A stretch of DNA of 64,000 nt from Candidatus Magasanikiibacteriota bacterium (GCA_016189025.1 JACPGS010000005.1:385-64384); one strand, 5' to 3'. Positions 14,795 to 57,000 are shown, counted from the first letter of the stretch. Made by a program: numbers and translations. The notes: generated by a model not told the origin, from the sequence alone.

Positions 14795-16354
14795 ATGACG
14801 CAAAAATTCTTTTTGTACACCCGCAAGTCTACGGATGTTGAGGATAAACAAATCCTCTCGATTGAAGCCCAACTCACAGAATTGCGCGCCTTTGCCAAAG
14901 AGAATAATTTGGAAATCGTGGAGGAGTTAATTGAAAAACAAACCGCGAAAGTGCCGGGTCGTCCCATTTTTAATGTTATGCTTGCCAGAATAGAAAAAGG
15001 AGAGGCCAATGGAATTTTGTCTTGGCACGCAGATCGTTTGGCGCGCAATTCCGTGGACGGTGGAAGAATTATTTACTTGCTTGATATAGGTAGACTTGCG
15101 GCGTTGAAATTTCCAACGCTGTGGTTTGACAACACGCCGCAAGGAAAGTTCATGCTCAACATCGCTTTTGGGCAAAGCAAATACTACGTTGATTCACTTT
15201 CGGAGAATGTGAAACGAGGATTGCGCCAAAAAGTCAGACGCGGAGAATATCCGAGCATTGCGCCAGTCGGCTATCTCAATGACGTGCGGCTGAAAACAGT
15301 CGTAGTGGACAAAAAGAAGTCGGCGATTATTAGTCAAGCGTTCGAACTCTACGCGAAAAATGACAGCCGTCTCGAAGATATATCTGACTTTTTGGCGCAC
15401 CAAGGCATTACCTCTCGCGGTGGCAAACCGCTCAAACGAGACAGAATTTCTTTTATCCTTTCCAACCCGTTCTATGTTGGGCTGTTTCAGTACGCAGGCG
15501 AGCTTTACGAAGGAAAACACCAGCCAGTTATCTCAAAGAAAATTTTTGACCACGTGCAGGAAGTATTAAAGCAGAGAGGACGGCCGCACCATAAAATCAA
15601 GAATGAATCGCAACCGTTCTGCGGACTTTTTTACTGCACCTGCGGCATGATGATTACTGGCGAATACAAGGTTAAGAGACAAAAAAATGGCAACGTGCAT
15701 TACTACACTTACTACCATTGCTCCCGAAAATCCAAAACCATCATTTGCAAAGAACCTTGTATTCGCCAAGAGGCATTGGATATACAGGTGTCCTCTCTGC
15801 TTCAAAAATTTTCTTTGAGCGAGGATTGGGCGGCGGAACTTTTGAAAATGTTTGAAAAGGACAGCGTGCAAGCCGCCCAATCCTCGACGGCTTTTGTTCA
15901 AGAGGCGCAGGGGAAGATTGAGGAAATTAAAACCAAGCTCCAGCGACTTCTGGACTCATATTTAGAGCAGGATGTTGAGCGCGAAGTGTATCTCAAAAAG
16001 AAGGCGGAACTGATGGGCGAAAAGAAGTCGTTGGAAGAAAAAAGTATCACTCTTAAACAAAAGCAAACTGGCTGGGTCGAACCGATGCGGAAATGGATAA
16101 AACAGGCAGAATATCTGCCCAAAATCGCATGGGATAGCAACCTTTTTGGCAAAAAGGTTGCCGCCAAAGAAATCTTTGGGTCGAACCTCCTCTTGGCGGG
16201 GAAACAGGCGCGCCTCGGCGCGCCAAAAATCGGCGACAATTGGGGGCAAAATCAATGGGCGGCCTTGCAGGCCGCCCACCAATTGGCTTCTGAAAACCCG
16301 AAAAGTTTTGTATTGGTACCGCGTACGGGAATCGAACCCGTGTTTGATGGCTGA
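14795..16354 (+). CDS. large serine recombinase (resolvase/invertase N-terminal domain + recombinase domain + zinc ribbon + coiled coil)
   Basis: N-terminal YTRKSTDVEDKQ...SIEAQ catalytic-serine region, Cys cluster CGLFYCTCG...YYHCSRK, long coiled-coil tail. The ORF reads through the right IR into tRNA-Glu, so the true C-terminus is uncertain. Confidence 0.75.
   Translation: MTQKFFLYTRKSTDVEDKQILSIEAQLTELRAFAKENNLEIVEELIEKQTAKVPGRPIFNVMLARIEKGEANGILSWHADRLARNSVDGGRIIYLLDIGRLAALKFPTLWFDNTPQGKFMLNIAFGQSKYYVDSLSENVKRGLRQKVRRGEYPSIAPVGYLNDVRLKTVVVDKKKSAIISQAFELYAKNDSRLEDISDFLAHQGITSRGGKPLKRDRISFILSNPFYVGLFQYAGELYEGKHQPVISKKIFDHVQEVLKQRGRPHHKIKNESQPFCGLFYCTCGMMITGEYKVKRQKNGNVHYYTYYHCSRKSKTIICKEPCIRQEALDIQVSSLLQKFSLSEDWAAELLKMFEKDSVQAAQSSTAFVQEAQGKIEEIKTKLQRLLDSYLEQDVEREVYLKKKAELMGEKKSLEEKSITLKQKQTGWVEPMRKWIKQAEYLPKIAWDSNLFGKKVAAKEIFGSNLLLAGKQARLGAPKIGDNWGQNQWAALQAAHQLASENPKSFVLVPRTGIEPVFDG
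16181..16238. repeat. 58-bp inverted repeat, right copy
   Basis: Perfect reverse complement of 14520..14577. Confidence 0.75.
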
Positions 16355-16388
16355 GAACCATCTGTCCTAGCCCCTAGACGAACGCGGC
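16314..16388 (-). tRNA. tRNA-Glu (anticodon CTC)
   Basis: Minus-strand sequence GCCGCGTTCGTCTAGGGGCTAGGACAGATGGTTCTCAGCCATCAAACACGGGTTCGATTCCCGTACGCGGTACCA. Glu-type D-arm, anticodon loop TTCTCAG, TTCGATT T-loop, CCA end. Confidence 0.75.
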
Positions 16389-19853: not shown

Positions 19854-22415
19854 ATGAGCAAAAGGGTTAAGACGGCAAAGCCGAGGGTCGCCCCCCCGCC
19901 GCGGCAACTCTACGACGCCTCTGACCAGACGCCGGTCCGGTTTGCCGTGTCGCCCGGATTGTCGGAGGAGATAATCCGGGAAATCTCGCGCCAAAAGCAG
20001 GAGCCGGCGTGGCTGTTAGAAAAACGTCTAAAAGCTTGGGGACTTTTTACCCAAACGCCCGTACCCACCTGGGGCGCTGATTTGTCTAAACTTGATTTGG
20101 ATAAAATTGTTTATTTTGTCCGGCCCGATGCCGCGGAAACCAAAAATTGGGCCGAGGTGCCGGCCGAGATTAAAAAAACCTTTGACCGGCTAGGTATCCC
20201 CGAAGCCGAAAAAAAAGCCCTGGCCGGCGTAGGGGCGCAATACGATAGCGACGTCGTGTATCACAAGCTCAAAAAACAATGGGAAGACAAAGGAGTGATT
20301 TTTGAGAATATGGACGTGGCGGTGCAGAAGTATCCGGAGCTGGTGAAAAAATACTTCATGACGCAATGCATTCCGATTAACGATCATAAATTCGCTATGC
20401 TCCACGCCGCGGTGTGGAGCGGCGGCACCTTTATTTATGTGCCCAAAAACGTCAGCGTGGATTTGCCGCTCCAGGCGTACTTCCGCATGAACGCGCGGGG
20501 CGGCGGGCAGTTTGAGCACACGCTCATCATCGTGGACGAGGGAGCGCAATTACATTATATTGAAGGCTGTTTTGTTAAAGGCACATACATTAAAACTGAC
20601 AAGGGCGACAAAACAATAGAAAGTATTAAAATTGGCGACAAGGTAATGACACATACAGGTGTGTATAAACCCGTATATCATACCCAGACAAGAAGACATA
20701 CTGGTGAGTTATATAACATAATATATTATGGTGATAGCACAGCAAATTTGTTGGTAACAAATGAGCATCCGTTCCTAGCCGTAAAAAGGCAACACAAAAA
20801 TGAGAAAAACGAAACGTGGGAAAAAGAGTGGATAAAACCACCGCAGTTAACCAAGCATGACTATCTCACTATACCTATTAATAAAACAATACGTACCGCA
20901 AAAAAATGTACTTTCACAATAAAAACATGGAACAATACAACCAAGGCATTTTATAATAAAAAAATTTCTGTGCTAAATGTTCCAGAATTTTATCGGCTGA
21001 TTGGATACTACCTTGCCGAAGGAAGCATCAGTGGCGGATATTATCTGAACTTCTCATTCGGAATAGAGGAGATAGTCTACATCGAAGACGTTGAAAATAT
21101 ACTCACTTCTTTATTTGGCGTCAAAAAAGTGCATCACATGGTTCACAAAACAAACCACGGAGTTTCACTGGTGGCATGTTCAGTGCAGCTCGCCCGTATT
21201 TTTGAGCAATTCGGAAAAAAGAATAATCTTAAACAATTGCCAAATTGGGCAATAACTGAATCACTTGAAAATCAAAAACAGCTTATTAAAGGATATTTTC
21301 GCGGTGATGGCAACTATTATAATCGTCGCCACGCTTCGGGATTTAAGGAAACCTTCAGAATGAATACAACCTCCAAAAAATTAACCTACCAAATGCGTGA
21401 CATACTCCTGCGTTTAAAAATCCCGGCTTTTATTAACCTGCGCGATAGAAAAAAAGAACATCGCCAGCCAATGTATACCATTGGAATTAGCGGAAATCAT
21501 ATGAAAAGCTTTGGCAATATAGTTGGCTTACCTGTTCCAGAAAAAATGCACGGTAAAAAACGTGCGTCACGATTTTATATTGATGATAACTATGCCTATT
21601 ATCCCATTAAATCTATACAAAAAAGAATGGTTAAAAAATTACCCGTCTATAATTTTAGCGTATTGGATAATGAAAGTTATATGGCCAACGGTGTTACGGT
21701 TCACAATTGTTCCGCCCCGCGCTACGGCACCAGCTCCCTGCACGCCGGCGGCGTGGAGATATTTGTCGGACGCGGCGCCCGGATGCGCTATTCCTCCATT
21801 GAAAACTGGTCGCACGACACCTATAATTTGAATACCAAACGCGCGCTGGTGGACGAGGATGGCATAATGGAGTGGGTCAACGGCAATCTGGGATCGTGCA
21901 CCACCATGCTCTACCCCTGCTCAATTCTGCGCGGGCGAGGGAGCCGCTCGGATTCGCTTGGCATTGCTTTTGCCGGCCCGGGCCAAAACCAAGACACCGG
22001 CGCCAAGGCCATCCACGCCGCGCCGCATACCAGTTCCACGATTGTTTCAAAATCTATCTCGGTGAATGGCGGCATCAATACTTTCCGCGGCCTGATTAAA
22101 ATAATGCCGATGGCTACGAACGTCAACGCCTCCATGGTCTGCGATGCGCTGCTCATCGGCAACCAGGCCATTGCCAACACCATTCCGGAGCTAAAGATAA
22201 AAAACGACCAGGTGCAGGTCGCCCACGAAGCGCGCGTCGGCAAAATCGGCGAAGAAGAAATTTTCTTTTTGCAATCAAGAGGGCTTAACGAGCAGGAAGC
22301 GACGCGATTAGTTGTCTCCGGTTTTATTGAACCGATTGTCAAAGCCTTGCCGGTGGAGTATGCTTTGGAATTGAATAGGCTGATTGAGATGGAAATGGAT
22401 GGGGCGGTTGGTTAA
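19854..22415 (+). CDS. sufB: Fe-S cluster assembly protein SufB interrupted by an intein
   Basis: SufB extein sequences flank an insertion. The junctions LHYIEG|C and HN|CSAP match the conserved SufB EGCxAP site. Confidence 0.85.
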   Translation: MSKRVKTAKPRVAPPPRQLYDASDQTPVRFAVSPGLSEEIIREISRQKQEPAWLLEKRLKAWGLFTQTPVPTWGADLSKLDLDKIVYFVRPDAAETKNWAEVPAEIKKTFDRLGIPEAEKKALAGVGAQYDSDVVYHKLKKQWEDKGVIFENMDVAVQKYPELVKKYFMTQCIPINDHKFAMLHAAVWSGGTFIYVPKNVSVDLPLQAYFRMNARGGGQFEHTLIIVDEGAQLHYIEGCFVKGTYIKTDKGDKTIESIKIGDKVMTHTGVYKPVYHTQTRRHTGELYNIIYYGDSTANLLVTNEHPFLAVKRQHKNEKNETWEKEWIKPPQLTKHDYLTIPINKTIRTAKKCTFTIKTWNNTTKAFYNKKISVLNVPEFYRLIGYYLAEGSISGGYYLNFSFGIEEIVYIEDVENILTSLFGVKKVHHMVHKTNHGVSLVACSVQLARIFEQFGKKNNLKQLPNWAITESLENQKQLIKGYFRGDGNYYNRRHASGFKETFRMNTTSKKLTYQMRDILLRLKIPAFINLRDRKKEHRQPMYTIGISGNHMKSFGNIVGLPVPEKMHGKKRASRFYIDDNYAYYPIKSIQKRMVKKLPVYNFSVLDNESYMANGVTVHNCSAPRYGTSSLHAGGVEIFVGRGARMRYSSIENWSHDTYNLNTKRALVDEDGIMEWVNGNLGSCTTMLYPCSILRGRGSRSDSLGIAFAGPGQNQDTGAKAIHAAPHTSSTIVSKSISVNGGINTFRGLIKIMPMATNVNASMVCDALLIGNQAIANTIPELKIKNDQVQVAHEARVGKIGEEEIFFLQSRGLNEQEATRLVVSGFIEPIVKALPVEYALELNRLIEMEMDGAVG
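20568..21707 (+). mobile_element. intein (380 aa) with LAGLIDADG homing-endonuclease domain inside sufB
   Basis: Starts with Cys (CFVKG), ends with ...VHN followed by extein Cys. Two LAGLIDADG-like motifs (LIGYYLAEGSISG and LIKGYFRGDGN). AT-rich relative to the exteins. Confidence 0.8.
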
Positions 22416-33475: not shown

Positions 33476-33766
33476 CTATTTTACCACAATATTTTGCACC
33501 CGCCCCACCTGGCCGCTCGTCAGCCGCACTTTTATACCATGCGGGTGGGTAGCAGAATTCGTCAAAATCTCGGCCACCATGCCGCGGGTCAATGCCCCGG
33601 TGCGCTGGTCGGCTTTCTGGTCGGCTTTAAGGATAATTTCTACTTCTAGCCCTGGGTAGATATCGGAGCGGTTTTGGGCGGGCATATATTTAATTTTACC
33701 GCCCCACCCGTTCACCGAGGCGGTGGTCAAGAGGACATTCATGAAGTTATTGGTTAAATTTTCCAC
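33476..33766 (-). CDS. hypothetical protein, YwbE/DUF2196-like
   Basis: C-terminal ...HPHGIKVRLTSGQVGRVQNIV pattern. Confidence 0.4.
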   Translation of the reverse strand: MENLTNNFMNVLLTTASVNGWGGKIKYMPAQNRSDIYPGLEVEIILKADQKADQRTGALTRGMVAEILTNSATHPHGIKVRLTSGQVGRVQNIVVK

Positions 33767-33944
33767 CTTTCAATAATTTATGATCCAATTGCACATGCGT
33801 AAAAAATTTCCACACCGCCCCGCAATCCGGACAGGTTAAATCAATTGAGTCGTCACTCGGCAAGGCTAACAACCCATCTGTATCTAAATCTTTTTTGCAA
33901 TACATGCATTTGAATTGGCCGGGAAAATAGTAACGATCACTCAT
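33747..33944 (-). CDS. small zinc-ribbon protein (65 aa)
   Basis: CxxC...CxxC arrangement (CMYCKK ... CPDCG). Confidence 0.4.
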   Translation of the reverse strand: MSDRYYFPGQFKCMYCKKDLDTDGLLALPSDDSIDLTCPDCGAVWKFFTHVQLDHKLLKGGKFNQ

Positions 33945-33958
33945 ATTTTTTAATTAAA

Positions 33959-34162
33959 TTATTTTTTAAATCCCTGCCAGATTAATGCTAATGTTAGAAT
34001 TACTAAAACGGTGGTTAAAGTAACCATTGCGATACTGGCCTTTTTTGTTGAGGAATCAAGTTTATTAATTGAATCTACCAGTTGTTTAGAACTCCTCTCA
34101 ACGCTTTGTACGACTGGAGTAGTAGACGTGCTGAAATCTCCTGGTGGAATAATATTAGGCAT
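33959..34162 (-). CDS. small single-TM membrane protein (67 aa)
   Basis: C-terminal hydrophobic helix; overlaps the hsdS stop (co-transcribed). Confidence 0.3.
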   Translation of the reverse strand: MPNIIPPGDFSTSTTPVVQSVERSSKQLVDSINKLDSSTKKASIAMVTLTTVLVILTLALIWQGFKK

Positions 34163-34166
34163 AAAT

Positions 34167-35516
34167 TTATGACTTACCTTTTTCCATCATCTCCTCAACC
34201 TTTCGTTTCGCCTCCGCCAACAGCTCCTTTGCTTTCTTTCGTGCTGCATGCGATGCTCGGACCAGGTCAGTAATTTTCTTTTGCGTTGCCGCTGGCAAAA
34301 TGGGGATTAATAAATTTTTTATATCCTTGTAACTAATGTTAGTTTGCACGCCACCCGTTCCAATTCTTGCTAATTGATCTTTACCTATAATTGAGTTAAG
34401 CAACAACACTAAATAATCGGGGTCAATATCCTTTGGTTTGAAATGCAGAATCCGCTGATTAATGCTGCACTTTTGAATGTCTGGAGGAATTAAAGAAGTC
34501 AAACCGATTGAACCAGACATTGATAAAACAATATCCCCCGGTCGTGCTAAATCTTTTTTAGAGAGAGAAGCGTCTTTCTCGGTAATATAGGCTGTGTCAG
34601 AAAGATCAAGCACGCCCTTCCCTATGTTATTAATTCTAATTAACGGTATGCCATTCTCCTGATAATTCTCACTTTTGAAAGGAAAACCCGTTGAATAATC
34701 TTTTATACAATCTTCTAACATCTTTACTGCTTTTTCTCTTATCTTTTTAATCAAATTATTATACAAGGGTTGATAAAATTCCGCATCCATCCGTTCGGCC
34801 GATTTAACATCGGAAAAATTAACTACGGTGTATGGTTCATTTTCTGTTTCAAAATTTTCTAAGCCTAATTCTTGTAAAAGCAGCTGTTCGGCTTGATGAT
34901 AAAATTTTCCAGCATCTTCTTTTTGATTGTGAATCTCTAAACATATTTGCTCAATTTTCTTTTGTTCATTTTCGCTAAAAATTGGTATTTTTATCTCTTT
35001 AATATTGGGAATATTTAAATTTGGTTGCGCCATGCCTGTTTGGAGCCGTAGGGTCTGAAAAATACCATATTTAGTGTTTAAAAAAAGGCCGGCAAAAAAC
35101 GGATTAACTTTATTAAACCGCACCCTAATTGTGTAAGAGCCAAAGGTGGCGCCTCTTAATTTTGGATAAACTACACTGGTTGCACCGGTGTTAGCCCCAC
35201 TTCTCGTAATTAAGCAATCTCCTGCCTCAAGTTTATATTCTGGTGGTACTTTCGCTCCATCAATTTTTAAAATTTCACCATCAATATCATAATCAAAAAG
35301 ATTCATGGCTCGTATGAAATCTACACCTCTCTCTAAATAATCGGGCTCTAAATACAGACCATACCTAACATCGCTTGTCAATGCACCGATTGTAGATGCT
35401 TTGGATAATTTTTTCATTGCATCCAAATACTCCGGCTGGTAATACTCCGCATCCAGCCGGTGCGCGCCTTCCAGTTGGGATTTTTGGATAATTGAACAGG
35501 CAATCACACAAATCAT
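34167..35516 (-). CDS. hsdS: type I restriction-modification specificity subunit HsdS (two target-recognition domains)
   Basis: Duplicated RLDAEYYQPEY / RMDAEFYQPLY conserved regions and a coiled-coil C-terminus. Confidence 0.85.
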   Translation of the reverse strand: MICVIACSIIQKSQLEGAHRLDAEYYQPEYLDAMKKLSKASTIGALTSDVRYGLYLEPDYLERGVDFIRAMNLFDYDIDGEILKIDGAKVPPEYKLEAGDCLITRSGANTGATSVVYPKLRGATFGSYTIRVRFNKVNPFFAGLFLNTKYGIFQTLRLQTGMAQPNLNIPNIKEIKIPIFSENEQKKIEQICLEIHNQKEDAGKFYHQAEQLLLQELGLENFETENEPYTVVNFSDVKSAERMDAEFYQPLYNNLIKKIREKAVKMLEDCIKDYSTGFPFKSENYQENGIPLIRINNIGKGVLDLSDTAYITEKDASLSKKDLARPGDIVLSMSGSIGLTSLIPPDIQKCSINQRILHFKPKDIDPDYLVLLLNSIIGKDQLARIGTGGVQTNISYKDIKNLLIPILPAATQKKITDLVRASHAARKKAKELLAEAKRKVEEMMEKGKS

Positions 35517-35995
35517 TTAATAAGGGGGCCTAGAATATAAGTTTCTAAAACTTTTTGGATTCCTAATTTAACCTGTGTTCCTTGTTTAAATATGGCCTCA
35601 TCTAATCTGCCATCCCCATAAGAAAGCGCAGCCTGATCAAAGTCAACCAAAGAATTATAACGAATTATTTCTCTATAGATAGGATTCAAAGTTTTTATCA
35701 TATCTCCAGGCAGTATCCCTGCGTTCAGTTTTGCCATTTCGTAAGCTTTATCTAGAAACCGTATTTTAGCACCGTTTACCATTATATTGTCACTCAAAGA
35801 TAAATTGAAGTCTAGTTCCTCTTTTAGATAATTAAGAATCTGTTTTACTAAATCTCTTTCATGCTCCAGCCGCCTTTGTACATCTAACTCTGCTGTCTCA
35901 CGTATCGATTTGATTGTTGCAAAATAGGTTACGCCCGCACCTATTATTGAACCAAAAAAGCCGCTTAATAAATTTCCCCATTCCATATTAAACAA
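35513..35995 (-). CDS. hypothetical membrane-anchored protein (160 aa) inserted between hsdM and hsdS
   Basis: N-terminal TM helix (LLSGFFGSIIGAGVTYFATI). Overlaps both neighbours by 4-8 nt, implying translational coupling. Confidence 0.5.
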   Translation of the reverse strand: MFNMEWGNLLSGFFGSIIGAGVTYFATIKSIRETAELDVQRRLEHERDLVKQILNYLKEELDFNLSLSDNIMVNGAKIRFLDKAYEMAKLNAGILPGDMIKTLNPIYREIIRYNSLVDFDQAALSYGDGRLDEAIFKQGTQVKLGIQKVLETYILGPLIK

Positions 35996-37940
35996 AATTT
36001 AATTTTTCCCTCCTCGCAAACTCTCTAAACCCCTCCGCAATCTCATCTAAATCGTGATCAAGCACTTTGCGACCTTTGCCATCGTACATATTACTCCCAT
36101 CGGGCATTTTTTTGTATACATAATCCCCGGAATTATTTTTGCCGCCCTTTTTGGATACGGCCATAAAAATTGGATAATCCTTTAGCGGCTCACCGGCCCA
36201 CTTTTGCAAGAACAATACGCTTGTTTTTACTCCAGCATGAGGTCTAAAAGTATTTTGATGCAAACCAATAACCGCAAGTATCCGTGCCCTTTCAAAAAGG
36301 TATTCACGGATATATTCCGCATTTGTATTATTTAAAATCCCCTGCGGCAACACTATTGCCATCCGCCCACCAGGCCGCAGTAAATCCAGGCAACGTTCGA
36401 TAAACAAAATATGTCGCTCAATTTTGTTTACCAGCCTGCCGTTCTTTTTGCCAAAGTTATACTGCCGGAGCAAACCTGGATCTTTAACTTCGCCGGCAAA
36501 CGGCGGATTGGTAAGGAGCACGTTAAAGTTAAAATAGTGAAAGGTGCGGCGATTTTCGGTATTGTCGGCGGCATTGCCCATATCTAATAGCCGCGTTTGC
36601 AATTTGGATCGCGCGTCAAGTAGCTGGGCATCTTCACCTTGCCACTCACGCGGGTCTAAAGAGTTGAGCTTAAACAAGTGCGACCGGCCGTCTCCGGCAA
36701 TGAGCATCAGCGCTCGCGATACCTTAGAAATTTCCTCGGCAAAATCTATACCCCAGACACGCTCTTTGGCATACTCGCGCATCGCCTCGTCGGAACTTTT
36801 GCAATGCTGATCACGCGCCCAGTACATAGCGCTGATTAAAAATCCGCCGGAGCCGGTAGCCGGATCAATAACATATTCATCGCGTTTTGGATCCAGCATT
36901 TTTACCGCCATAGAAATGACATGGCGCGGGGTAAAATATTGTCCTTTCTTACCTTTGGCTACTTCCGGAATAAGATATTCAAATGCTTCATCAATAATGG
37001 ACAAATCCGAACCGAATAAACGCGCCTTCTCCAATTCGCCCACCACTATCGATAAATGCTCCGGCGATAAATTAACATTCTCCTGTTCGTAAAAAGTACT
37101 GGGCCATTTTTTTATTGCTTGCTTGAACAAATTATTTATTGCTTGATAAGTGCGCGCAGTATCTTTGTATTTGCGAAACTGCACTTCGTTGTCCGGCCGG
37201 TGCAAACGCGCTTCCACTTCATCAAATAATTTTGCATAAATGAGTTTAAACACTTCGGTAAATACGTCAACGCCGGAGTTGGCCAGCACCAGTTCTTCCA
37301 TGTTCTTAATAATTTCGCGCAAATCCATTTTGGCACTGGTATATTCAAATAGTGTCTTTTTTGCTTCCAGTAAATCGTCTACAGTTTGGTCCGCCTTCGG
37401 CAAGTCGGGCAGAGTATCGTCAAATTCTTTGGGATACGGCCGGTATAAAATGATGTGCTTGTTGCCATTGGACCATAAACCAATTTCCGCGCCTTCGGAA
37501 TTAAGGTACGACTTAAGCTGTTCAATACCCTTTGCTTCTTTGGGGCTTTTTACTTCAACAATAATGTAAGGCGTAATTTGGTCTGGTTTATGTACCACAA
37601 TATCCGCTTTTTTGGCGTGGATTTCGCGGCCAAAATGTATTGATTTTTCGATGGCCAATCGATCGGCCGGATATTGATACCCGGCACGAAGTTTATGAAC
37701 CCACAGTTGGCGGATAATTTCTTCCGGGTGGCCCTTTTGCTTTTGATTATCGTACACTACGCGGTATTGGTCTGGCGCCAAAAGATCTTGTATATAATAT
37801 TTACCATCGTTGCGATTCACAATATAAAGTGCTTCATCTATTGCTATTCCCTCAAACTCTTTAAGGCCAAACCCGTCCAGTGAATTATGAAAAATTTTTG
37901 CGATGGCTTCTTTGACTTTATTTGGTTTTACAGTGGGCAT
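35988..37940 (-). CDS. hsdM: type I R-M N6-adenine DNA methyltransferase HsdM with an N-terminal extension of about 190 aa containing a PD-(D/E)xK-like motif
   Basis: LLTNPPFAGE motif IV and FTPRHV... motif I region. N-terminal ADIVVHKPDQITPYIIVEVKSPKE resembles an HsdR_N/Mrr-type nuclease core. Confidence 0.85.
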   Translation of the reverse strand: MPTVKPNKVKEAIAKIFHNSLDGFGLKEFEGIAIDEALYIVNRNDGKYYIQDLLAPDQYRVVYDNQKQKGHPEEIIRQLWVHKLRAGYQYPADRLAIEKSIHFGREIHAKKADIVVHKPDQITPYIIVEVKSPKEAKGIEQLKSYLNSEGAEIGLWSNGNKHIILYRPYPKEFDDTLPDLPKADQTVDDLLEAKKTLFEYTSAKMDLREIIKNMEELVLANSGVDVFTEVFKLIYAKLFDEVEARLHRPDNEVQFRKYKDTARTYQAINNLFKQAIKKWPSTFYEQENVNLSPEHLSIVVGELEKARLFGSDLSIIDEAFEYLIPEVAKGKKGQYFTPRHVISMAVKMLDPKRDEYVIDPATGSGGFLISAMYWARDQHCKSSDEAMREYAKERVWGIDFAEEISKVSRALMLIAGDGRSHLFKLNSLDPREWQGEDAQLLDARSKLQTRLLDMGNAADNTENRRTFHYFNFNVLLTNPPFAGEVKDPGLLRQYNFGKKNGRLVNKIERHILFIERCLDLLRPGGRMAIVLPQGILNNTNAEYIREYLFERARILAVIGLHQNTFRPHAGVKTSVLFLQKWAGEPLKDYPIFMAVSKKGGKNNSGDYVYKKMPDGSNMYDGKGRKVLDHDLDEIAEGFREFARREKLNFV

Positions 37941-37947
37941 AAAAAAA

Positions 37948-38586
37948 TTATTTGATGGGCAACCACTGCCCGCTTTTACTCACGGAAATAACTTTTCCCT
38001 TGAGTTCAATATTATCTTTAAACAAAATATTTTGGTATTTAGGATTCTCCGGCTTCAAAAACAAATAAGGCGGCTGATCGGTAGACATAAACCGCTTGAC
38101 GGTGGTTTCATCGTCCACCTGCGCAAAAACAATGTCGCCGGAGACAAAATACTTTTGAGTTTGCACCAATACCTGGTCGCCGTCATCAATACCGGCGTTA
38201 ATCATGGAGTCGCCGGAAATTCGCAAGACAAAAACCTCATCTTTTAGTTTAGCCAAGCCGCCCGGCAAGGTTTGCCACTCTCCGGTGATTGCGAGAGCTT
38301 GAATCGGTGGACCGCCGGCAGCAACTCCCATAAATGGCGCCATTGGCTGGCGACCAAGCGCCTCATAGCCAAGCGGCAAGAGTGTTAAACCCCGTGCCGC
38401 GGCCTCGCTCCGCTTGATATAGCCATTTTCAACCAACTTTTTTAGAAGATCAACCACCGATTGATTAGACGCAACTTTCAATTCCTCCCGCATCTCCTCA
38501 AAGGTCGGCGGGTAGCCGCTGCCTTGAAAATAGTCATAAATTATTCCAAGTAACTGTTTTTGTCGCTCGGTAATGTCCTTTTTCAT
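37948..38586 (-). CDS. lexA: LexA repressor (S24 peptidase)
   Basis: N-terminal winged-HTH, Ala-Gly cleavage-site region, GDSM catalytic Ser and VKR Lys. The annotated first codon is TTG, so start is taken at the ATG (MKKDITERQ). Only 8 nt from the hsdM start. Confidence 0.8.
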   Translation of the reverse strand: MKKDITERQKQLLGIIYDYFQGSGYPPTFEEMREELKVASNQSVVDLLKKLVENGYIKRSEAAARGLTLLPLGYEALGRQPMAPFMGVAAGGPPIQALAITGEWQTLPGGLAKLKDEVFVLRISGDSMINAGIDDGDQVLVQTQKYFVSGDIVFAQVDDETTVKRFMSTDQPPYLFLKPENPKYQNILFKDNIELKGKVISVSKSGQWLPIK

Positions 38587-38591
38587 ACCCA

Positions 38592-38622
38592 AATAGTATA
38601 CCCGACTATTTGTACAGGTACA
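38592..38622. promoter_or_regulatory. candidate LexA operator palindromes just upstream of lexA
   Basis: AATAGTatacccgACTATT followed by TGTACAggTACA, in the lexA / ATP-grasp divergent intergenic region. Confidence 0.25.
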
Positions 38623-38685
38623 ATGACTCCCCCCTGTGGATAACCAATCTTCGTTAAACTGGTTACCGAATTCTCATAAAAACAT

Positions 38686-40014
38686 ATGCCCTGTCGCCAC
38701 TCATTCATTCCCAGTTTATTTATTGCCAACTACCCACTTTTCTCGTATAATCCCGCTATTATGCCAGCGCTAGAAAACCGGCTAAAATTCACTCCCCTGG
38801 TTTATGTCACGCGAGATTTAGAGCGAGCTTTAGGGCTGCCCCTAAAAACTAAAAATTATTACCTGGTAACTAACGCCACGCCCTTTGCCAAGGCCACGGC
38901 TGCCGCGGCGGCGCGCGTGCTCTTGATAAAAGCAAAGGAACCGCTGGATACCCGCGAGCTGCTGCAACATCCGCCGACGATAAACTTCATCAAAAAAATG
39001 AAGAGGCAACCGGCTATTTTAGTTTTTAAAAATACTCCGCAAATAGAAAGAATCTGCGCGGCGCGGGGATGGCGCTTGCTGAACCCGAGCGCCGAGCTAG
39101 CCAATCGCGTGGAAGAAAAAATTTCGCAGTTAGAGTGGCTCGGGCCGCTAAAAAAATATTTGCCGCCGCATCAGGTGATGCTGGGCAAAGACTTGGCGTG
39201 GCAAAACAAAAAATTCATCCTCCAATTCAACCGCGCCCACACCGGACTCGGCACCATGCTAATTGAATCGGCCAGACAAATCCAGGAATTAAAAAAGAAA
39301 TTCCCCCGGCGTGAGGTACGCGTGACTAAATTTATCTCGGGGCCGATCTTTACTGTCAATAGCGTGGTGTGGGGCAATCGCGTGCTGGTCGGCAACATCA
39401 GTTACCAAATTACCGGCTTGGCGCCGTTTACTGACCAGCCCTTTGCCACGATTGGCAATGACTGGGCGTTGGCGAACCAAGCGCTAAGCTATCAACAGGG
39501 TAAGCAGATTAAGCAGATTCAACGTATCGCGATTGACATAGGGAAACGGCTGAGGGACGACGGGTGGCGAGGACTGTTTGGGATTGATGTAGTAGTAGAA
39601 GAAACCACCGGACGCGTTTATCTGCTAGAAATTAACGCCCGCCAGCCGGCCAGCGCGGCGTATGAGTCGCAGTTACAGGCGAGGAATAAAGGATCAAGTA
39701 GCAAGTACAAGGTATCGACATTTGAAGCGCATTTGGCCGCCTTACTCGGTCTCCCTCTTGCTCGCCCTGCTCTAATTCCCATTACCGCTGGAGCGCAAAT
39801 TATCCAGCGGGTCATTCGCTCCGCTTCCCCGCTTCCCGCTTCCCGCTTCGCTCTTACCAAATTATCCCACGCTGGCTTCACCATCATCCCCTATGCCAAC
39901 CCCCGCCCCGGCGCCGACCGGTTGCGCATCCAGAGCAAACAAGGAATAATGAAAGGGCATAACGAACTTAATACTGCTGGCAAGGGGATTGCTTCGTCGC
40001 GGAGTTTACACTGA
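38686..40014 (+). CDS. ATP-grasp superfamily protein (C-terminal ATP-grasp fold; N-terminal domain of unknown function)
   Basis: GIDVVVEETTGRVYLLEINARQ matches the ATP-grasp Mg/ATP-binding motif. Alternative start at 38761. Confidence 0.6.
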   Translation: MPCRHSFIPSLFIANYPLFSYNPAIMPALENRLKFTPLVYVTRDLERALGLPLKTKNYYLVTNATPFAKATAAAAARVLLIKAKEPLDTRELLQHPPTINFIKKMKRQPAILVFKNTPQIERICAARGWRLLNPSAELANRVEEKISQLEWLGPLKKYLPPHQVMLGKDLAWQNKKFILQFNRAHTGLGTMLIESARQIQELKKKFPRREVRVTKFISGPIFTVNSVVWGNRVLVGNISYQITGLAPFTDQPFATIGNDWALANQALSYQQGKQIKQIQRIAIDIGKRLRDDGWRGLFGIDVVVEETTGRVYLLEINARQPASAAYESQLQARNKGSSSKYKVSTFEAHLAALLGLPLARPALIPITAGAQIIQRVIRSASPLPASRFALTKLSHAGFTIIPYANPRPGADRLRIQSKQGIMKGHNELNTAGKGIASSRSLH

Positions 40015-51096: not shown

Positions 51097-54000
51097 CTAG
51101 TTGCAGCCGTCGTCTACGACGCCGTTGCAGTTATTGTCATACTGGTCGCACCACTCGGTAGAACCCGGGTGGTTGTGGTACGACCCGTCAGTGACAAACG
51201 AGAACCCCTGCAAAGGCGTTGAATCGGACGGGTTGTCGTCGCAGTCGCCGCCTTGGAGGTCGGCAACCGCGATTGCCGGGTTGCGACTGCCGGTACAGGG
51301 CGCCACTTCACAGAACCCATCGCCGTCGTCATCCCAGCTATCGCAGGTGGTGTCCGGCAACGGCCCGCCGCCCGCGCCCGATGCCCGCAGCGGCGTCAGC
51401 CCGTGCTGATCCAAGCAAACACCGGCGAGATCGGTGCCGGTCAGGTCTCGGCCGGTCAGGTCGCTCCCGGCAAGATCTGCCGCGGGACTGCCATCCGCTG
51501 CCCCGCCCGTGAGGTCGCTCGTGAGGTCAGAGGCCGCTGCAGTCAGGTCGCCGGCGCTTGCGAGGTCAGGGGCAACGGATTGATCCAGAAACACCAACCG
51601 ATCTGCTGCGACCGTGAGATCCGTTGCTACAGCGCTGTCACCCACTGCCGAAAAATCGGCTACGCCTCCGACACCATCCGCGCCCGTGAGATCCGGCAAC
51701 GACGACAGATCCATCGCCAGCGCCCCGTCCGCCATCGTGAGGTCTGGTACAACCGTAAGATCAGGCCCTACCGTAAGATCAGGCAGAACTGCCAGATCGG
51801 GCGGAGGCGTGAGGTCATTCGGAGGCAATTCGAGATCCGGCGAAGAAACGACCGCATCCGGCGGAACACCGAGATCCGGTGAGGGGCCGCTGGCATCACC
51901 GACGCCGCCATCCCCTACTGTCGCACATACCCCGCCGACGCAGGCGCCACTCGCGCAGTCGCCCGCGCTCGCGCAACGCGCTCCTATGGGACAACCCAGG
52001 CAACTCCCGCCACCGCAGTCAAGGTCGCTCTCGCTGCCGTTCCGGACGCTGTCGCTGCAGGTTGGCGGCCGGCAGGTGTTGTTGGTGCAGACGCCGCTGG
52101 CACAATCCAGGGCGCCGCCACAACTCATGCCGTCCGGACAGCCCGGGCAAGCACCGCCGCCGCAGTCCACGTTAGTCTCAAAGCCATTCCGGAAACCGTC
52201 GTTACACGACGACACGCAGACGTTGTTGGTGCACACATCGCTCGTACAATCCGAGCCATGCTGACACCCCTTGCCGTCCACGCACCGGCCGCACACGCCG
52301 CCGCCGCAATCCACGTCCGTTTCCTGCCCATTTACTGCCCCATCCGAGCAGGTGGCAATATCATGGCACGTTCCGCCGACACAGCTCATCCCTGCCGGGC
52401 AGACTTCCCCGCAAGCGCCGCAATTGGCATTGGTGCCAAGGGTGGTTTCGCAGCCGTCAGTGCGCTTGCTGCCGTTGCAATCCGCGAACCCGCTGGCGCA
52501 GGCACCGGTGCACTGGCCGCCAACGCATAGCCGGATAACGAGGTTGAGGCCCGAGCAGACTTGCCCGCAGCCTCCGCAGTGGTCCGGATCCGAGGTAGTG
52601 TTTACCTCGCAGCCGTCCAGAGCGTGATCGCTGTTGCAATCCGCAAAGCCAGGCGAACAGGTGCCGCGGCAAACTCCTGTGGTGCAGGTGCGGAGGGTGA
52701 TGTTCTGCGTGGAGCAGATTACCCCGCAGGCGCCGCAGTTCTCCACGTCGCCGTCGGTGTAACTTTCGCACCCGTCAGTGACATTGCTGTTGCAATCAGC
52801 GTAGCCGGCGTTGCCCCGGGTAAACCCGCACTGACCGTTGGTACAGGCGGGATTGGCATTGGGAGTGAGGCAGGGTTGACTGCAAACGCCGCAGTTCGCG
52901 AGGTCGGAATTCAGGTTGACCTCGCAGCCGTCGCGGCGCTTATCGCCGTTGCAATCCGCGAAGCCGGCGCTGCAGGCCCCACCGCAAACGCCAACCGTAC
53001 AGGTAGGCGCCGCGATGTTGTTGCCCGAGCACTCCGCCCCGCAACCACTGCAATGGCGCGGATCGGCGTTGACGTTCACCTCGCAGCCGTCGCGGCGCTG
53101 GTCAGCGTTGCAGTCGGCGAAGCCGGAAAGGCAATCGCCGGCGCAAGCGCCTTCCACGCACCGCAACATCGAGATGTTTACGCCCGAGCAGGTGTTCCCG
53201 CAGCCGCCGCAGTTGCCTACGTCAGTAGCGGTATTCACCTCGCAGCCGTTCCCCGCCGCGCCGTCGCAGTTGGCGTATCCGCTGTTGCAGGTCGCCACCT
53301 GGCAGGCGCCGCCGAAGCAGGCTGGCGTACCGTTCGCTGCGAAGCAAGCAATGCCGCACGCCCCGCAGTTGCCCACGTGGCGCTCGAGCTCTACTTCGCA
53401 GCCGTCGCTCGGATTGCTGTTGCAGTCCGCGAAGCCGGCGCTGCAGCTTGCCACCTGGCAGGCGCCGTTGGTACAGACCGGCGTGCCGTTGGCGACGACA
53501 CAGACCTTGCCGCAGGCGCCGCAATTATTGAGGTCGCGGGCGGTTTCGGTCTCACAGCCGTCCAGCTGCTTGTTGGCATTGCAGTCGGAGAATCCTGAAG
53601 CGCAGGCGCCGATACAGCTACCGGTAGAGCAGGTCGGCGCGACGTGATTTGCCGAGCAGACCGCGCCGCAGGCGCCGCAAGCGTCCTTGTTCAGGGTGAG
53701 GCTGGTCTCACAGCCGTCCGCGGCGCTGCTGTTGCAGTCCGCGAAGCCGGCGGAACAGGAGACTATCGTACAAGCTCCTCCGATGCAGTTGGAGGCGCCA
53801 TTGGGATTCAGGCACGCGCGGCTACAGACGCCGCAGTGCTGATTATCACTCCGCAGATCCACCTCGCAACCGTCGGCCGGATTGTTATTGCAATCCGCGA
53901 AGCCGGCGGCGCACTGCCCGATGACGCACGCCCCGCCCACACAGACCGGAGTGGCATTCGGCAGAGCGCACACCTTGCCACAGCCGCCGCAGTTGCCTAC

Positions 54001-57000
54001 GTCAGTAGCGGTATTCACTTCGCAGCCGTCCAGGCGCTTGTTGCCGTTGCAATCCGCGAAACCAGCGGCGCAGACGCCTGCCTCGCACGAACTCGCCGCA
54101 CAAGAGGCGGCGATATTCTGGGTGCTACAGGCCGACCCACACCCGCCGCAGCTCGTGGTGCTCGTCGCGAGGTTCGTCTCACACCCGTCGGCCGCATCCG
54201 CGTTGCAGTTGGCGTACCCCGCGTTGCAGGAGGCGATGTTGCACTTGCCTACCGAACACGCCGGCGTACCGTTTGCCGCCACGCAGCTTACCCCGCAGCC
54301 GCCGCAGTTCTCCGCGTCGCTTGCGAGGTTTGCCTCGCACCCGTCGCCCGACCAGCCGTTGCAGTCCTGGAAACCAGAGTGGCAGGAGGCGATCCCGCAA
54401 AAGCTACTGAAAAAGCCAGGGAAACACCCAGCGGTACCGTTCGGAGCCGAACACCGCACGCCGCAGAACCCGCAGTTATTGGGGTCAGCCGCGATGTTGG
54501 TTTCGCACCCCGTTCCGTACGCGCCGTCGCAGTCCGCAAAGCCAGGGTCGCACCCACCACTGATGGTGCAGGATCCTCCCCAACACATGGGGAGACCGTG
54601 CGCCGGCGGCGAGCAGACATTGCCACAGCTGCCACAGTTGCGCAGGTCGTAAAGAGTATTTACCTCGCAACCGTTACTTGGATTGCGGTCGCAATCCGCA
54701 TAACCGGAGTAACAGCTGGTAAGGGTACACTCCCCGCCGAGGCAGCTAGAAGTGCCGCCGAAGCGGGAACACGCCGCCCCGCAAGCGCCGCAGTTGCCGG
54801 CATTGCTCATGAGGTTGGTCTCGCAGCCGTCCGAGAGATTCGCATTGCAGTCCGCGAACCCGACGGAGCAGCCGACGAAGACACAGGAACCGGCCGAACA
54901 GACCGAGGCGCCATTCGCGAACAGACAGAGCCGTCCGCAGGCGCCGCAGTGCTGGGCGTTGATGCGGGTGTCAACTTCACACCCGTCCGCCGCCATGCCG
55001 TTGCAGTCCGCGAAGCCGGCAGCGCACGAGCCGACCGCGCACGCGCCGTTCAAACAAACAGCCGCGGCGTTCGGGAGTGAACACACTGCTCCGCACCCGC
55101 CGCAGTTCCGGACGTCGCTCATTGTATCGGTCTCGCAGCCGTCCGCGGCGCTGCTGTTGCAGTCCGCGAAGCCGACGGAACAGGAAACGATCGTGCAAGC
55201 CCCTCCGATACAGCGGGAGGCGCCGTTGGGATTCAGGCACGCGCGGCTACAGACGCCGCAGTGCTGGTTGTCGCTGCGGAGATCCGCCTCGCAGCCGTCC
55301 GAGAGATTCGCATTGCAGTCCGCGAACCCGACGGAGCAGCCGACGAAGACACAGGAACCGGCCGAACAGACCGAGGCGCCATTGGCGAACAGGCACAGCC
55401 GTCCGCAGGCGCCGCAGTTGGTGGCGCTGGTTGCGAGGTTGGTCTCGCAGCCATCCGCCACCACGCCGTTGCAGTCCGCGAAGCCAGGAGCACACGCCCC
55501 GATGGCGCACGCGCCGTTCAAACAAACAGCCGCGGCGTTCGGGAGTGAACACACTGCTCCGCACCCGCCGCAGTTCCGGACGTCGCTCATCGTGTCCATT
55601 TCGCAGCCGTCTAGACGCTTACTGCTGTTGCAGTCCGCGAAGCCCGGGAAGCATCCGCCGCCCTCGCACGAGCCGCTCTCGCAGGAGGCGACGATGTTCC
55701 GGGTGGAACACGCCGACCCGCAGCCGCCGCAGCTGGCGAGGGTGGTATTCAGGTTGACCTCGCAGCCGTCGGAGGCCTTACCGTTGCAGTCCGCGAAGCC
55801 GGTCTGGCAGGAGGCGACTGTACAGGCTCCACCCGCGCAGCCCGCAGCGCCATTCGCAATCACGCAGGCGTGGCCGCAGACGCCGCAGTTGCTGGGGTGG
55901 TTCTGGATGTTCACTTCACAGCCGTTCGCGACGTTGCCGTCGCAATCGGCAAAGCCCGCTTTGCACGAGCTAATACCGCACACTCCGCTGGCGCAGAGGG
56001 GGTTGGCGTTGGGAGGGGAAGGACACGGCTGGTTGCACCCGCCGCAGTGCGCCAGGTCGCGCGTGGTATCCACGCAGCGTCCCTGGCACTGGGCAAGCTC
56101 GGTCGGACACGGCTCACAGACGCCGAAGTGGCAGGTGCCGCTCCGGCAATCCGCGCCCGTGAGGCAATCCGAGAAGTCGCGGCACGGCAGGCACGCGCCG
56201 CCGCAGTCCACGTCAGTCTCTAGGCCATTCTTGATGCCGTCGCTACAGACCGGCGCCTGGCAGACGCCCCCGAGGCAAAGCCCGGAGGAACAGTCAGCCG
56301 CTAGTTCGCAGGAAAATCCCGGCTGACAGGCCGGACACCCGCCGCCGCAGTCCACGTCGGTTTCACGGCCGTTCTTCACGCTGTCGTGGCAGCTCGGCGC
56401 TGCGCAGCGGAGCGTCGGCAGATTGCAGACGCCGCTCACGCAGTCCGCGCCCAGGAAGCAGCGCTTACCGTCCGGACAGGGAGCACACAGCGGCCCCCCG
56501 CAATCCACATCGGTTTCGCTGCCGTTGGGGAACGACATGGTAGCGCCGTCCGCGCAACTCGGCTGGGGAGTGCAGAAAAGGTTGAAGCAGTTCCCAGTCA
56601 GGCAATCACGCCCCACCAGGCACTCCTGCCCAGCCTCACAGCGCCCGCACTTCCCGCCGCCGCAGTCCGCATCGGTTTCCAAGCCATTCTTCACGCCGTC
56701 GCGACACGTCGGGATGCACTCGCGGTTATTGCAGGTGAAGTTCCCCGTGGGCGCGCAGGCATACCAGCACGACCCACAGTTGTTCGCGTCATTCGCGAGG
56801 TTCACCTCGCAGCCGTCTATGGCATTCGCGTTGCAGTTCGCGAATCCAGGCTTGCAGGAAACGTCGCAGGTGCCGGAAACGCACACCGGATATCCCTGCG
56901 CCGATAGCGGACAGCGATTGCCGCAACCGTCGCAGTTGCGCGGGTCAACGTCGATGTTCGTCTCGCAGCCGTTGCCGACGTCGCCGTCGCAATCCGTGAA

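Follow-up and report, generated by a model that had tools for sequence, protein, structure and literature searches.

The 64-kb window analysed here (64,000 nucleotides, GCA_016189025.1 JACPGS010000005.1:385-64384) covers nearly all of a 64,825-bp contig belonging to a Candidatus Magasanikbacteria metagenome-assembled genome, and all coordinates given below are positions in this window. From about 38644 down to 34167 it probably holds a single operon led by the gene for the SOS repressor LexA, in which a BcgI/BsaXI-like restriction-modification (R-M) enzyme, composed of a fused nuclease-methylase subunit (RM) and a specificity subunit (S), is encoded together with a gene of accessory cargo, orf160. 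An initial annotation had read the same block as a lexA-hsdM-orf160-hsdS island of Type I without hsdR. The genes that it described are all present on the minus strand, as seen in a map of the open reading frames (ORFs) of the 30-42 kb region, on which all module genes lie on that strand, and in family scans. The features are as follows.

38635-38643, minus strand: DnaA-box-like element TTATCCACA, 11 nt 5' of the -35 hexamer, at the upstream edge of the conserved module.
38595-38623, minus strand: lexA promoter, with -35 TTGTAC at 38623-38618, a 17-nt spacer that contains the operator, and -10 TATACT at 38600-38595.
38604-38615, minus strand: putative LexA operator GTACAAATAGTC, the family palindrome GAMYAWWTRGTC with one mismatch.
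37948-38586, minus strand: lexA, 212 aa, with a winged-helix DNA-binding domain and an S24 self-cleaving peptidase domain.
35988-37940, minus strand: RM subunit (the former 'HsdM'), 650 aa, with the nuclease at about 72-181, a helical connector and the methyltransferase at about 315-597.
35513-35986, minus strand: orf160, 157 aa from the ATG at 35986, or 160 aa with the TTG at 35995.
34167-35516, minus strand: S (HsdS), 449 aa, with two target-recognition domains (TRDs).
33959-34162, minus strand: TM67, an AT-rich gene for a 67-aa membrane protein.
33747-33944, minus strand: Zn-ribbon65 (Zn65), an AT-rich gene for a 65-aa CxxC zinc-ribbon protein.
Ending at 33476, minus strand: YwbE/DUF2196 gene, after which murB comes next.

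The RM protein is, by its sequence, an HSDR_N_2 PD-(D/E)xK nuclease fused to a gamma-class N6-adenine methylase. Residues 72-181 match Pfam HSDR_N_2 (E 1.6e-19), with a DIVV...IIVEVK motif present, and residues 315-597 match Pfam N6_Mtase. A REBASE-derived PADLOC model spans the whole protein, including the N-domain, with 580 bits. Among Protein Data Bank (PDB) sequences, RM is best matched (E 2.9e-26) by RM.BsaXI, in which a Type IIB enzyme has its nuclease and methylase on one subunit; at 650 aa RM is close in size to the A subunit of BcgI (637 aa). Mutagenesis in a cryo-electron microscopy study of BsaXI showed that its N-terminal PD-(D/E)xK domain cannot do without E73, D90, E105 and K107, four residues that are reportedly conserved among Type IIB enzymes (PMC11997821). 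A phmmer alignment places them at E98, D113, E129 and K131 of RM, all of which are kept without exception by 22 full-length relatives and, at identities as low as 56%, by 25 N-domains. Likewise invariant are the S-adenosylmethionine-binding motif DPAxGSGGF (359-367) and the catalytic NPPF (478-481), which follow the gamma-class order. Moreover, the BsaXI segment 43-112 itself matches Pfam HSDR_N_2 above the cutoff (E 9e-10), and both nuclease domains therefore belong to one family.

Restriction is most likely supplied by RM itself through this conserved PD-(D/E)xK N-domain, and RM and S together most likely constitute a self-contained BcgI/BsaXI-like R-M enzyme, of a known architecture that works without HsdR. 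The composition found is that of Type IIB systems: an RM fusion, a separate two-TRD S and no HsdR in the 64 kb. The nuclease-like N-terminal extension proposed in the initial annotation was thus borne out on comparison with nuclease families. Its two wider readings were not: an orphan or defective M+S system is contradicted by a nuclease-methylase fusion accompanied by S, and the supposedly non-canonical architecture is the standard BcgI/BsaXI-type Type IIB composition. Plasmid-borne relatives are built in similar ways, with an RM gene (674 aa) followed directly by S without HsdR on a Klebsiella IncF plasmid, and with a 1179-aa RM-S fusion on Picosynechococcus pAQ6; a single-chain RMS composition is counted among the Type IIB enzymes (PMC11997821).

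Of the candidates scored, 4,906 clusters fall within the RM family at E<=1e-10; the family has thousands of 90%-identity clusters and retains about 70% identity across classes of the Candidate Phyla Radiation (CPR). Each of the best 120 relatives shows 70-87% identity and has a length of about 650 aa, and the hosts include Magasanik-, Falkow-, Kerfeld-, Azam-, Giovannoni-, Levy-, Peregrini- and Paceibacteria and others. In viral contigs the family is represented by distant relatives only, at no more than 47% identity, on which ground the idea of a phage-borne module was rejected. At one related locus (L094:7641-9594; L numbers denote related loci) RM is frameshifted into an HSDR_N_2 ORF of 237 aa and an N6_Mtase ORF of 429 aa, the frameshift falling in the conserved motif VFxExFKLIYAKL, which indicates a pseudogene or an assembly error.

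The setting of RM was surveyed by a metagenome scan with an alignment, which returned 80 loci (a contig scan with a single protein query returned 2 only). The ORFs were called, searched with the window proteins and clustered, giving 79 non-redundant loci. The only clusters conserved across loci are RM (85), S (72) and LexA (57), and the flanks are unrelated housekeeping genes, for example those for rpoC, ftsK, aminoacyl-tRNA synthetases and EF-Tu/S10. The upstream tally is limited to the 65 of 79 loci with at least 700 nt of upstream sequence. The lexA gene directly abuts RM in 43 of these and lies within 500 nt of it, with a small membrane-protein gene interposed, in seven; a RadC N-terminal-domain gene takes its place in eleven, all within a subgroup of 55-58% identity, and four have an upstream gene of another kind. 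Downstream, S was found 3' of RM in 67 loci and is adjacent to it (gap below 100 nt) in three of them, the RM-to-S gap having a median of 746 nt, an interquartile range of 559-1005 and a maximum of 2505.

In the sister subgroup, an XRE helix-turn-helix (HTH) gene and the RadC N-domain gene occupy the position of lexA. The RadC N-domain gene (UPF0758_N, helix-hairpin-helix) encodes about 110 aa and is often preceded by the XRE-type HTH gene of about 70 aa; the loci of this type are L050, L060, L064, L066, L067, L071-L073, L077, L078, L084 and L087, and two of them have a full RadC with a JAB domain. A second, rarer insertion point lies between lexA and RM, where about six loci (L029, L033, L044, L058, L070 and L095) carry a conserved gene for a membrane protein of 123-137 aa (cluster c11).

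By its domains, catalytic dyad and Ala-Gly site, the lexA product is judged to be a canonical LexA. It scores 145 bits against TIGR00498 (cutoff 111) and matches both Pfam LexA_DNA_bind and Peptidase_S24; none of 39 relatives departs from the Ser of GDSM or the Lys of VKRF, the Ala-Gly cleavage site is present, and a protein with 100% identity bears the name 'repressor LexA [Candidatus Magasanikbacteria]'. The ORF was listed as 38592..37948, starting from a TTG at 38592, and the true ATG is at 38586. This ATG lies 8 nt 3' of the -10 element, so the lexA mRNA is leaderless or near-leaderless.

The promoter of lexA has a layout shared by about 45 loci and by nine of the nine lexA loci sampled independently (see below), namely TTGACx, the 12-bp palindrome GAMYAWWTRGTC, GGGTAnnAT, about 8 nt and the ATG. 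Instances of the palindrome among the loci include GACTAAATAGTC and GACCATATGGTC. Of the 49 non-redundant regions upstream of lexA, 45 have it at a fixed distance with at most one mismatch (shuffles: mean 1.7, maximum 8), and its exact copies in 977 kb of related CPR loci are found at lexA promoters only. Within the window, GTACAAATAGTC is the sole promoter-located match and sits between TTGTAC and TATACT. The palindrome is most likely the operator at which LexA would bind. Further upstream, TTATCCACA is exact in 15 of the 49 regions (shuffles: mean 0.16) and, when up to one mismatch is allowed, present in 30 (shuffles: 4.4), the position and orientation being shared by most of them. Its conservation suggests that DnaA co-regulates the lexA-R-M operon, binding of DnaA being predicted from the consensus. 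Perfect or near-perfect copies also stand at L011, L015, L024, L027, L030, L041, L057-L059, L093, L095, L106 and L108.

The stop codon of lexA is separated from the RM ATG by 7 nt, and neither a terminator nor a promoter was detected between the two genes, which are almost certainly co-transcribed; the co-transcription raised in the initial annotation is supported by this spacing and lack of a terminator. Pairwise LexA and RM identities also correlate (r = 0.69). To avoid circularity, nine LexA homologs were sampled only by the size of the available contig. A methylase or R-M system follows lexA in eight of the nine, in four architectures; those seen behind lexA are IIB-like RM plus S, another N6_Mtase plus S, an HNH nuclease accompanied by Dam-like methyltransferases, and a fusion of M and S. 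Five of the nine have this RM family, then zero to three cargo genes and S, with one RM frameshifted. At L092:7001-10491, lexA precedes an N6_Mtase (600 aa, from a different lineage and with a D...IECK motif of its own) and a 317-aa S; at L107:6001-9970 it precedes two Dam-like D12 methylases and an HNH nuclease; at L108:6001-9877, a 785-aa N6_Mtase-TRD fusion; and at L091:7001-8736, a DUF3800 gene only. As the operator-bearing promoter is retained in nine of nine sampled loci in front of varied R-M systems, the conserved feature is lexA heading an R-M operon, beyond any one RM family. At L090:2944-6894, a gene for a 1316-aa UvrD/AddA-like helicase-nuclease with an intein is divergent from the lexA promoter and may share the LexA operator.

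The S subunit has the two TRDs claimed for it, since Pfam Methylase_S matches two stretches of the 449-aa protein; PADLOC Specificity_I gives 200 bits. Across relatives, mean identity is 40% for S versus 70% for RM. The limits and the modular nature of the system emerge from a nucleotide comparison with the L001 locus. The two sequences are 82% identical from 38644 through the promoter, lexA and RM up to the RM stop, there is no homology across orf160, and the breaks at the RM stop and the S start are clean. Within S, the first half (TRD1 plus the central helix) is 91% identical, TRD2 is unrelated (window 34322-34775 against L001:11436-11889) and the last 143 nt (the C-terminal helix) are 82.5% identical. 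No homology was found outside 38644 or past the S stop. From these blocks, the module extends from 38644 to 34167, cargo and TRD2 have been swapped as cassettes, and TM67 and Zn65 are local additions. The difference between the two S genes reads as TRD shuffling, with TRD1 closer (91%) than the lexA-RM stretch (82%), and because TRD1 is shared and TRD2 is not, the recognition sites of the window and L001 enzymes should have one half-site in common. Neither direct or inverted repeats nor a tRNA or integrase gene bounds the island at its flanks, for which reason an integrative mobile element was rejected; cassette exchange via homologous recombination in the conserved flanks fits better.

The interval between RM and S behaves as a hypervariable cargo slot with conserved flanks, judging from the 89 cargo ORFs that it holds across the loci, which fall into 54 clusters, mostly singletons. 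A locus usually has one to three such hypervariable genes, and L030, L047, L051 and L090 have none. More than 50 unrelated slot families occur among 80 loci, most of them, orf160 included, unannotated. Pfam and PADLOC matches comprise Schlafen/AlbA_2, DUF4145, Trypsin_2, DUF3800, AAA_15/OLD-like and AbiEii-like ATPases, GIY-YIG, NYN, PemK/MazF, KAP NTPase, HEPN, an RnlA-like domain, AbiLi, AriA-like, GajA-like and LmuA. These families look typical of defence islands, and the expectation that the M-S position would be taken in relatives by abortive infection (Abi) or toxin-type genes was correct. Both the slot and the lineage-wide link to lexA with its conserved operator had been overlooked by the initial annotation.

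The cargo of the window, orf160, had no family match in Pfam, NCBIfam, PADLOC or PDB sequences, its alignment profile found nothing among PDB sequences, and Pfam scans of 31 family members returned scattered glycine-zipper/transmembrane noise only. About 50 representative relatives exist among 1.8 billion proteins, all of 150-190 aa. The family has an N-terminal glycine-zipper transmembrane helix (SGxxGxxxG); E60, N64, N114 and G129 are conserved in the helical domain that accompanies it. An AlphaFold2 (AF2) model of mean pLDDT 63 shows four helices, a long one containing the transmembrane segment and three others, and gave no significant fold match; a Foldseek search against the PDB returned generic four-helix-bundle matches, all at E>0.2. 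A weak PADLOC match to AbiP (E 0.008) was not reproduced, and that assignment was rejected. No relatives were found in viral contigs. Two close relatives both lie inside R-M operons, the first between an RM gene of the same family and S, the second between an HSDR_N_2+RAMA nuclease and an N6_N4 methylase.

In the closest relative (L001-L003, RM 87% identical), the order lexA-RM-(160 aa)-S is kept and the 160-aa gene is unrelated to orf160. For this reason orf160 was rejected as a missing restriction component. Of the suggestion that the N-domain of 'HsdM' and/or orf160 supplies restriction, the first half stands, with its conserved nuclease, and the second is unlikely, orf160 being one of more than 50 unrelated slot alternatives that are dispensed with altogether at some loci. 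From its position, orf160, a rare cargo gene, most likely encodes an accessory, membrane-anchored defence or exclusion factor rather than a subunit of RM+S, and its product possibly acts at the membrane in abortive infection or exclusion.

Several points weigh against the operon and enzyme as described. Taken alone, the N-domain alignment to BsaXI is weak, contributing 6 bits within the full-length match; the significance of the RM.BsaXI match derives from the methyltransferase domain and the overall sequence similarity is remote. A profile of the N-domain only found nothing at E<=1 among PDB sequences, and the AF2 model of RM, built with 22 close homologs, has a pLDDT of 47, too poor for fold comparison. 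The REBASE-derived PADLOC models call the family 'Type I methyltransferase', its relatives are annotated merely as 'N-6 DNA methylase', and the closest NCBIfam model is MAD2, from a system that uses further genes. To our knowledge no member of this exact RM family has been characterised biochemically, so that we infer two-sided cleavage, stoichiometry and nuclease activity. On the regulatory side, the window operator GTACAAATAGTC carries one mismatch in its left half, and the -35 TTGTAC is weak and was missed by a generic promoter scan. A restriction enzyme raised during SOS looks risky for the host and its regulatory logic is not obvious, and the role assigned to orf160 is argued from position. 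The genome is visible through 64 kb, and a second lexA, an hsdR or more operators could be located elsewhere.

Among the other explanations, the one that survives best, while still unlikely, is that of a pair of M and S subunits devoted to modification: a LexA-controlled methyltransferase with an epigenetic or repair-related role, in which HSDR_N_2 would have lost its activity or would serve in DNA binding or regulation, and no restriction would occur. In its favour, the annotation of the RM family stops at 'N-6 DNA methylase', the lexA-linked methylases of L092 and L108 have no Pfam-recognised nuclease domain, and the coupling to lexA and a DnaA-like box would be in keeping with an enzyme linked to replication or repair. 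The invariance of the E/D/E/K tetrad down to 56% identity is, however, hard to explain without nuclease activity, and the fast divergence of S and the TRD swaps (40% against 70% for RM) resemble the outcome of defence-type diversifying selection. Moreover, the slot is filled with Abi- and toxin-type cargo, and the lexA-linked system of L107 has an explicit HNH nuclease.

Less probable again is that the adjacency of lexA is simply positional, with R-M modules inserting 3' of a housekeeping lexA and being transcribed and regulated independently. The four or more R-M architectures behind lexA could mark such an insertion hotspot, the GC content of lexA in the window (0.47) is intermediate between host and cargo, and at a few loci lexA is set 350-400 nt apart from RM, with an extra gene in the interval. 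This sits poorly with a lexA-RM spacing that usually falls between -25 and +26 nt, neither a terminator nor a promoter intervening, with LexA and RM identities that co-vary, and with homology to L001 that is unbroken from the promoter via lexA into RM. In addition, the subgroup that lacks lexA has another regulator-type pair at that place (the XRE HTH and RadC N-domain genes).

A classical Type I system, in which an M2S1 methylase recruits an HsdR encoded at a distance in the genome, is very unlikely. The absence of HsdR from the window, as first claimed, was upheld by a scan of ten large ORFs of 276-2363 aa, among them all those that lie outside the module and reach 492 aa, in which no helicase or ResIII domain was found; the large ORFs encode SufB with an intein, a P-type ATPase, a glycosyl hydrolase, a sulfatase, a penicillin-binding protein (PBP), a serine recombinase and a Mur ligase, or belong to no family. 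Within 8 kb, HsdR homologs are lacking at 84 of 85 related loci, and none stands beside the plasmid relatives. The sole exception, which is not adjacent, is L001, where positions L001:1-3053 encode a genuine Type I HsdR (HSDR_N, ResIII, T1RH-like_C) about 5 kb 5' of lexA; it lies beyond lexA, parted from it by glnA, NYN and PIF1/WYL helicase genes, and the fetched part of L001 has no hsdM or hsdS matching that HsdR. Against TIGR00497 (hsdM), RM scores 44 bits, where the cutoff is 242.75, and only the catalytic core is aligned. On both counts, the hsdM model and HsdR, RM is by sequence not a Type I M subunit, and of the original 'HsdM' of 650 aa the size was right and the Type I identity was not. 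The typical two-TRD form of S, the Type I label of the best PADLOC models, the true HsdR of L001 and the 64-kb view of the genome speak for the Type I reading, which is opposed by a TIGR00497 score so far under its cutoff and by the nuclease that RM itself carries.

Most improbable is a MADS-like system, in which RM and S would be MAD2 and MAD5 in need of ATPase, kinase or nuclease partners and orf160, TM67 and Zn65 would be divergent versions of these: the NCBIfam models MAD2 (309 bits over nearly the full length of RM) and MAD5 (184 bits for S) are the closest, PADLOC mad2 and mad5 match too and extra small genes accompany the pair, but the scores are far below the equivalog cutoffs of 720 and 400, PADLOC found no match to other mad genes among the neighbours of RM and S, and the accompanying genes are hypervariable and missing at L030, L047, L051 and L090. 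By these models the system falls outside MADS, with MAD2 and MAD5 below their equivalog cutoffs and the remaining mad genes absent.

In the LexA-led operon with a BcgI/BsaXI-like enzyme, then, LexA would bind the 12-bp palindrome in its own near-leaderless promoter and repress lexA, RM, cargo and S together. DNA damage, or single-stranded DNA made by phage, would lead to RecA-stimulated self-cleavage of LexA and de-repression of the operon. RM and S would assemble, presumably as (RM)2S, and the two TRDs of S would recognise a bipartite target. Adenines in host DNA would be methylated by the gamma-class domain of RM, whilst the N-terminal PD-(D/E)xK domain would cut unmethylated DNA near the site without the help of an HsdR translocase, and the cargo gene would add a second, variable layer of defence. 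Alternatively, LexA may chiefly provide tight negative autoregulation in the manner of C proteins.

The system resembles the Type IIB enzymes BcgI and BsaXI (IIG/IIH; PDB 8w0p; PMC11997821) in its HSDR_N_2 nuclease with the E-D-ExK tetrad, helical connector and NPPF methyltransferase, in its separate two-TRD S and in having no translocase. Unlike BsaXI, whose RM has 916 aa, the window RM is devoid of a C-terminal 'paddle', and unlike either enzyme the system has a variable gene between RM and S and lexA at the head of the operon, with cleavage predicted. MADS MAD2 and MAD5 (NF047738, NF047740) share the order of an HSDR_N-type domain and N6_Mtase and the paired S, but scores well below the equivalog cutoffs and the absence of the other six mad genes set the window system apart.

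Type I loci with embedded accessory genes include E. coli prr, where the PrrC anticodon nuclease is encoded within the hsd genes, and the rlo genes of Campylobacter jejuni. As in these, an HsdS-like subunit shuffles its TRDs and unrelated Abi- or toxin-type genes are nested between methylase and specificity genes; in contrast to them, the window family is without HsdR, has its nuclease fused to the methylase and is headed by lexA, and its slot is filled in about 95% of loci with a far greater diversity of genes.

R-M operons regulated by controller (C) proteins, such as those of PvuII and Esp1396I, likewise have a small repressor gene first and a palindromic operator overlapping the operon promoter. 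Here, however, the regulator is a full self-cleaving LexA, and control would depend on RecA and DNA damage instead of simple autogenous timing. With R and M on one polypeptide, control by LexA does not serve to hold R back behind M. Defence regulators that respond to DNA damage are also known, among them CapH/CapP for CBASS and the WYL/BrxR-type regulators. The likeness is that immune genes would be kept repressed until a DNA-damage signal inactivates the repressor, and the difference is that the canonical SOS repressor itself is employed, in cis, as the first gene and superphylum-wide.

The Patescibacteria (CPR) superphylum is largely devoid of CRISPR, and its members have tiny genomes with few known defence systems. 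Our tentative generalisation, offered as a possibility, is that lexA is the lineage-wide lead cistron of a CPR R-M operon with nested Abi-type cargo, a LexA operator and often a DnaA box, in which several R-M architectures are interchangeable. If true, DNA-damage or replication-stress signalling would be wired straight to innate immunity in CPR, and LexA in these bacteria would have an immune operon, not repair genes, as its principal conserved target. A cis-encoded LexA heading R-M operons across the superphylum would represent a kind of control new to restriction systems, and it provides a concrete, testable link from SOS, and possibly DnaA, to antiviral defence. The RM-S slot is, furthermore, a practical place to seek small defence and toxin genes in uncultured bacteria. 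The kind of enzyme is ordinary (Type IIB-like), whereas the RM family is uncharacterised, very abundant and unusually conserved, and the labels 'N-6 DNA methylase' and 'type I M protein' conceal a probable restriction nuclease. No description of a link between lexA and R-M genes in CPR emerged from literature searches, and novelty is regarded as provisional, given the possible overlap with a 2017 study of SOS in Patescibacteria; that study of the SOS regulon, by Sanchez-Osuna et al., may already contain part of the lexA-R-M and motif findings. On that provisional footing, the R-M type is known and the lexA-headed operon, the conserved operator and DnaA-like box and the near-obligatory cargo slot were previously unremarked.

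The remaining junctions are tight. The RM stop and the ATG of orf160 are 1 nt apart, and this ATG (35986) is more likely the start than the TTG at 35995, use of which gives an 8-nt overlap with RM; orf160 and S overlap by ATGA. The translational overlaps first described thus hold for orf160 and S, and for RM and orf160 only with the TTG start. The block is AT-rich, as was stated at the outset, with GC contents of 0.47 for lexA, 0.44 for RM, 0.35 for orf160, 0.375 for S, 0.36 for TM67 and 0.38 for Zn65 (0.35-0.47 from lexA to Zn65) against 0.53 for the window. TM67 and Zn65 are packed tightly after S, probably co-transcribed with it, and lie outside the conserved module; they have no homologs among the 85 related loci and gave sub-threshold matches only in Pfam, NCBIfam and PADLOC scans. 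The YwbE gene (GC 0.52) is host-like, as is murB (0.58), and on account of this composition and a gap of about 60 nt to Zn65, counted from the likely YwbE start, it is probably a host gene outside the unit. Of the three small genes originally assigned to the operon, TM67 and Zn65 can probably be retained and YwbE probably not. An Rfam scan of the region gave no match.

Across from the lexA promoter, a strong promoter-like sequence on the plus strand (38723-38761, TTGCCA-17-TATAAT) lies inside the listed ORF 38686..40014 and stops about 9 nt 5' of an in-frame ATG (MPALENR...), so this divergent neighbour is probably leaderless and shorter than listed; neither its 442-aa protein nor the next one, of 276 aa, has a Pfam match. 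Elsewhere in the window, a 2363-aa ORF at 51097-58188 (minus strand) has no Pfam match at E<=1e-5, and at 19854-22415 (plus strand) a SufB gene is split by an intein (Hint_2 and LAGLIDADG_3). At 14795-16388, the gene for a 519-aa large serine recombinase (Resolvase and Recombinase) ends in or beside a tRNA-Glu gene on the opposite strand (16314-16388), a junction that may mark the boundary of an integrated element.

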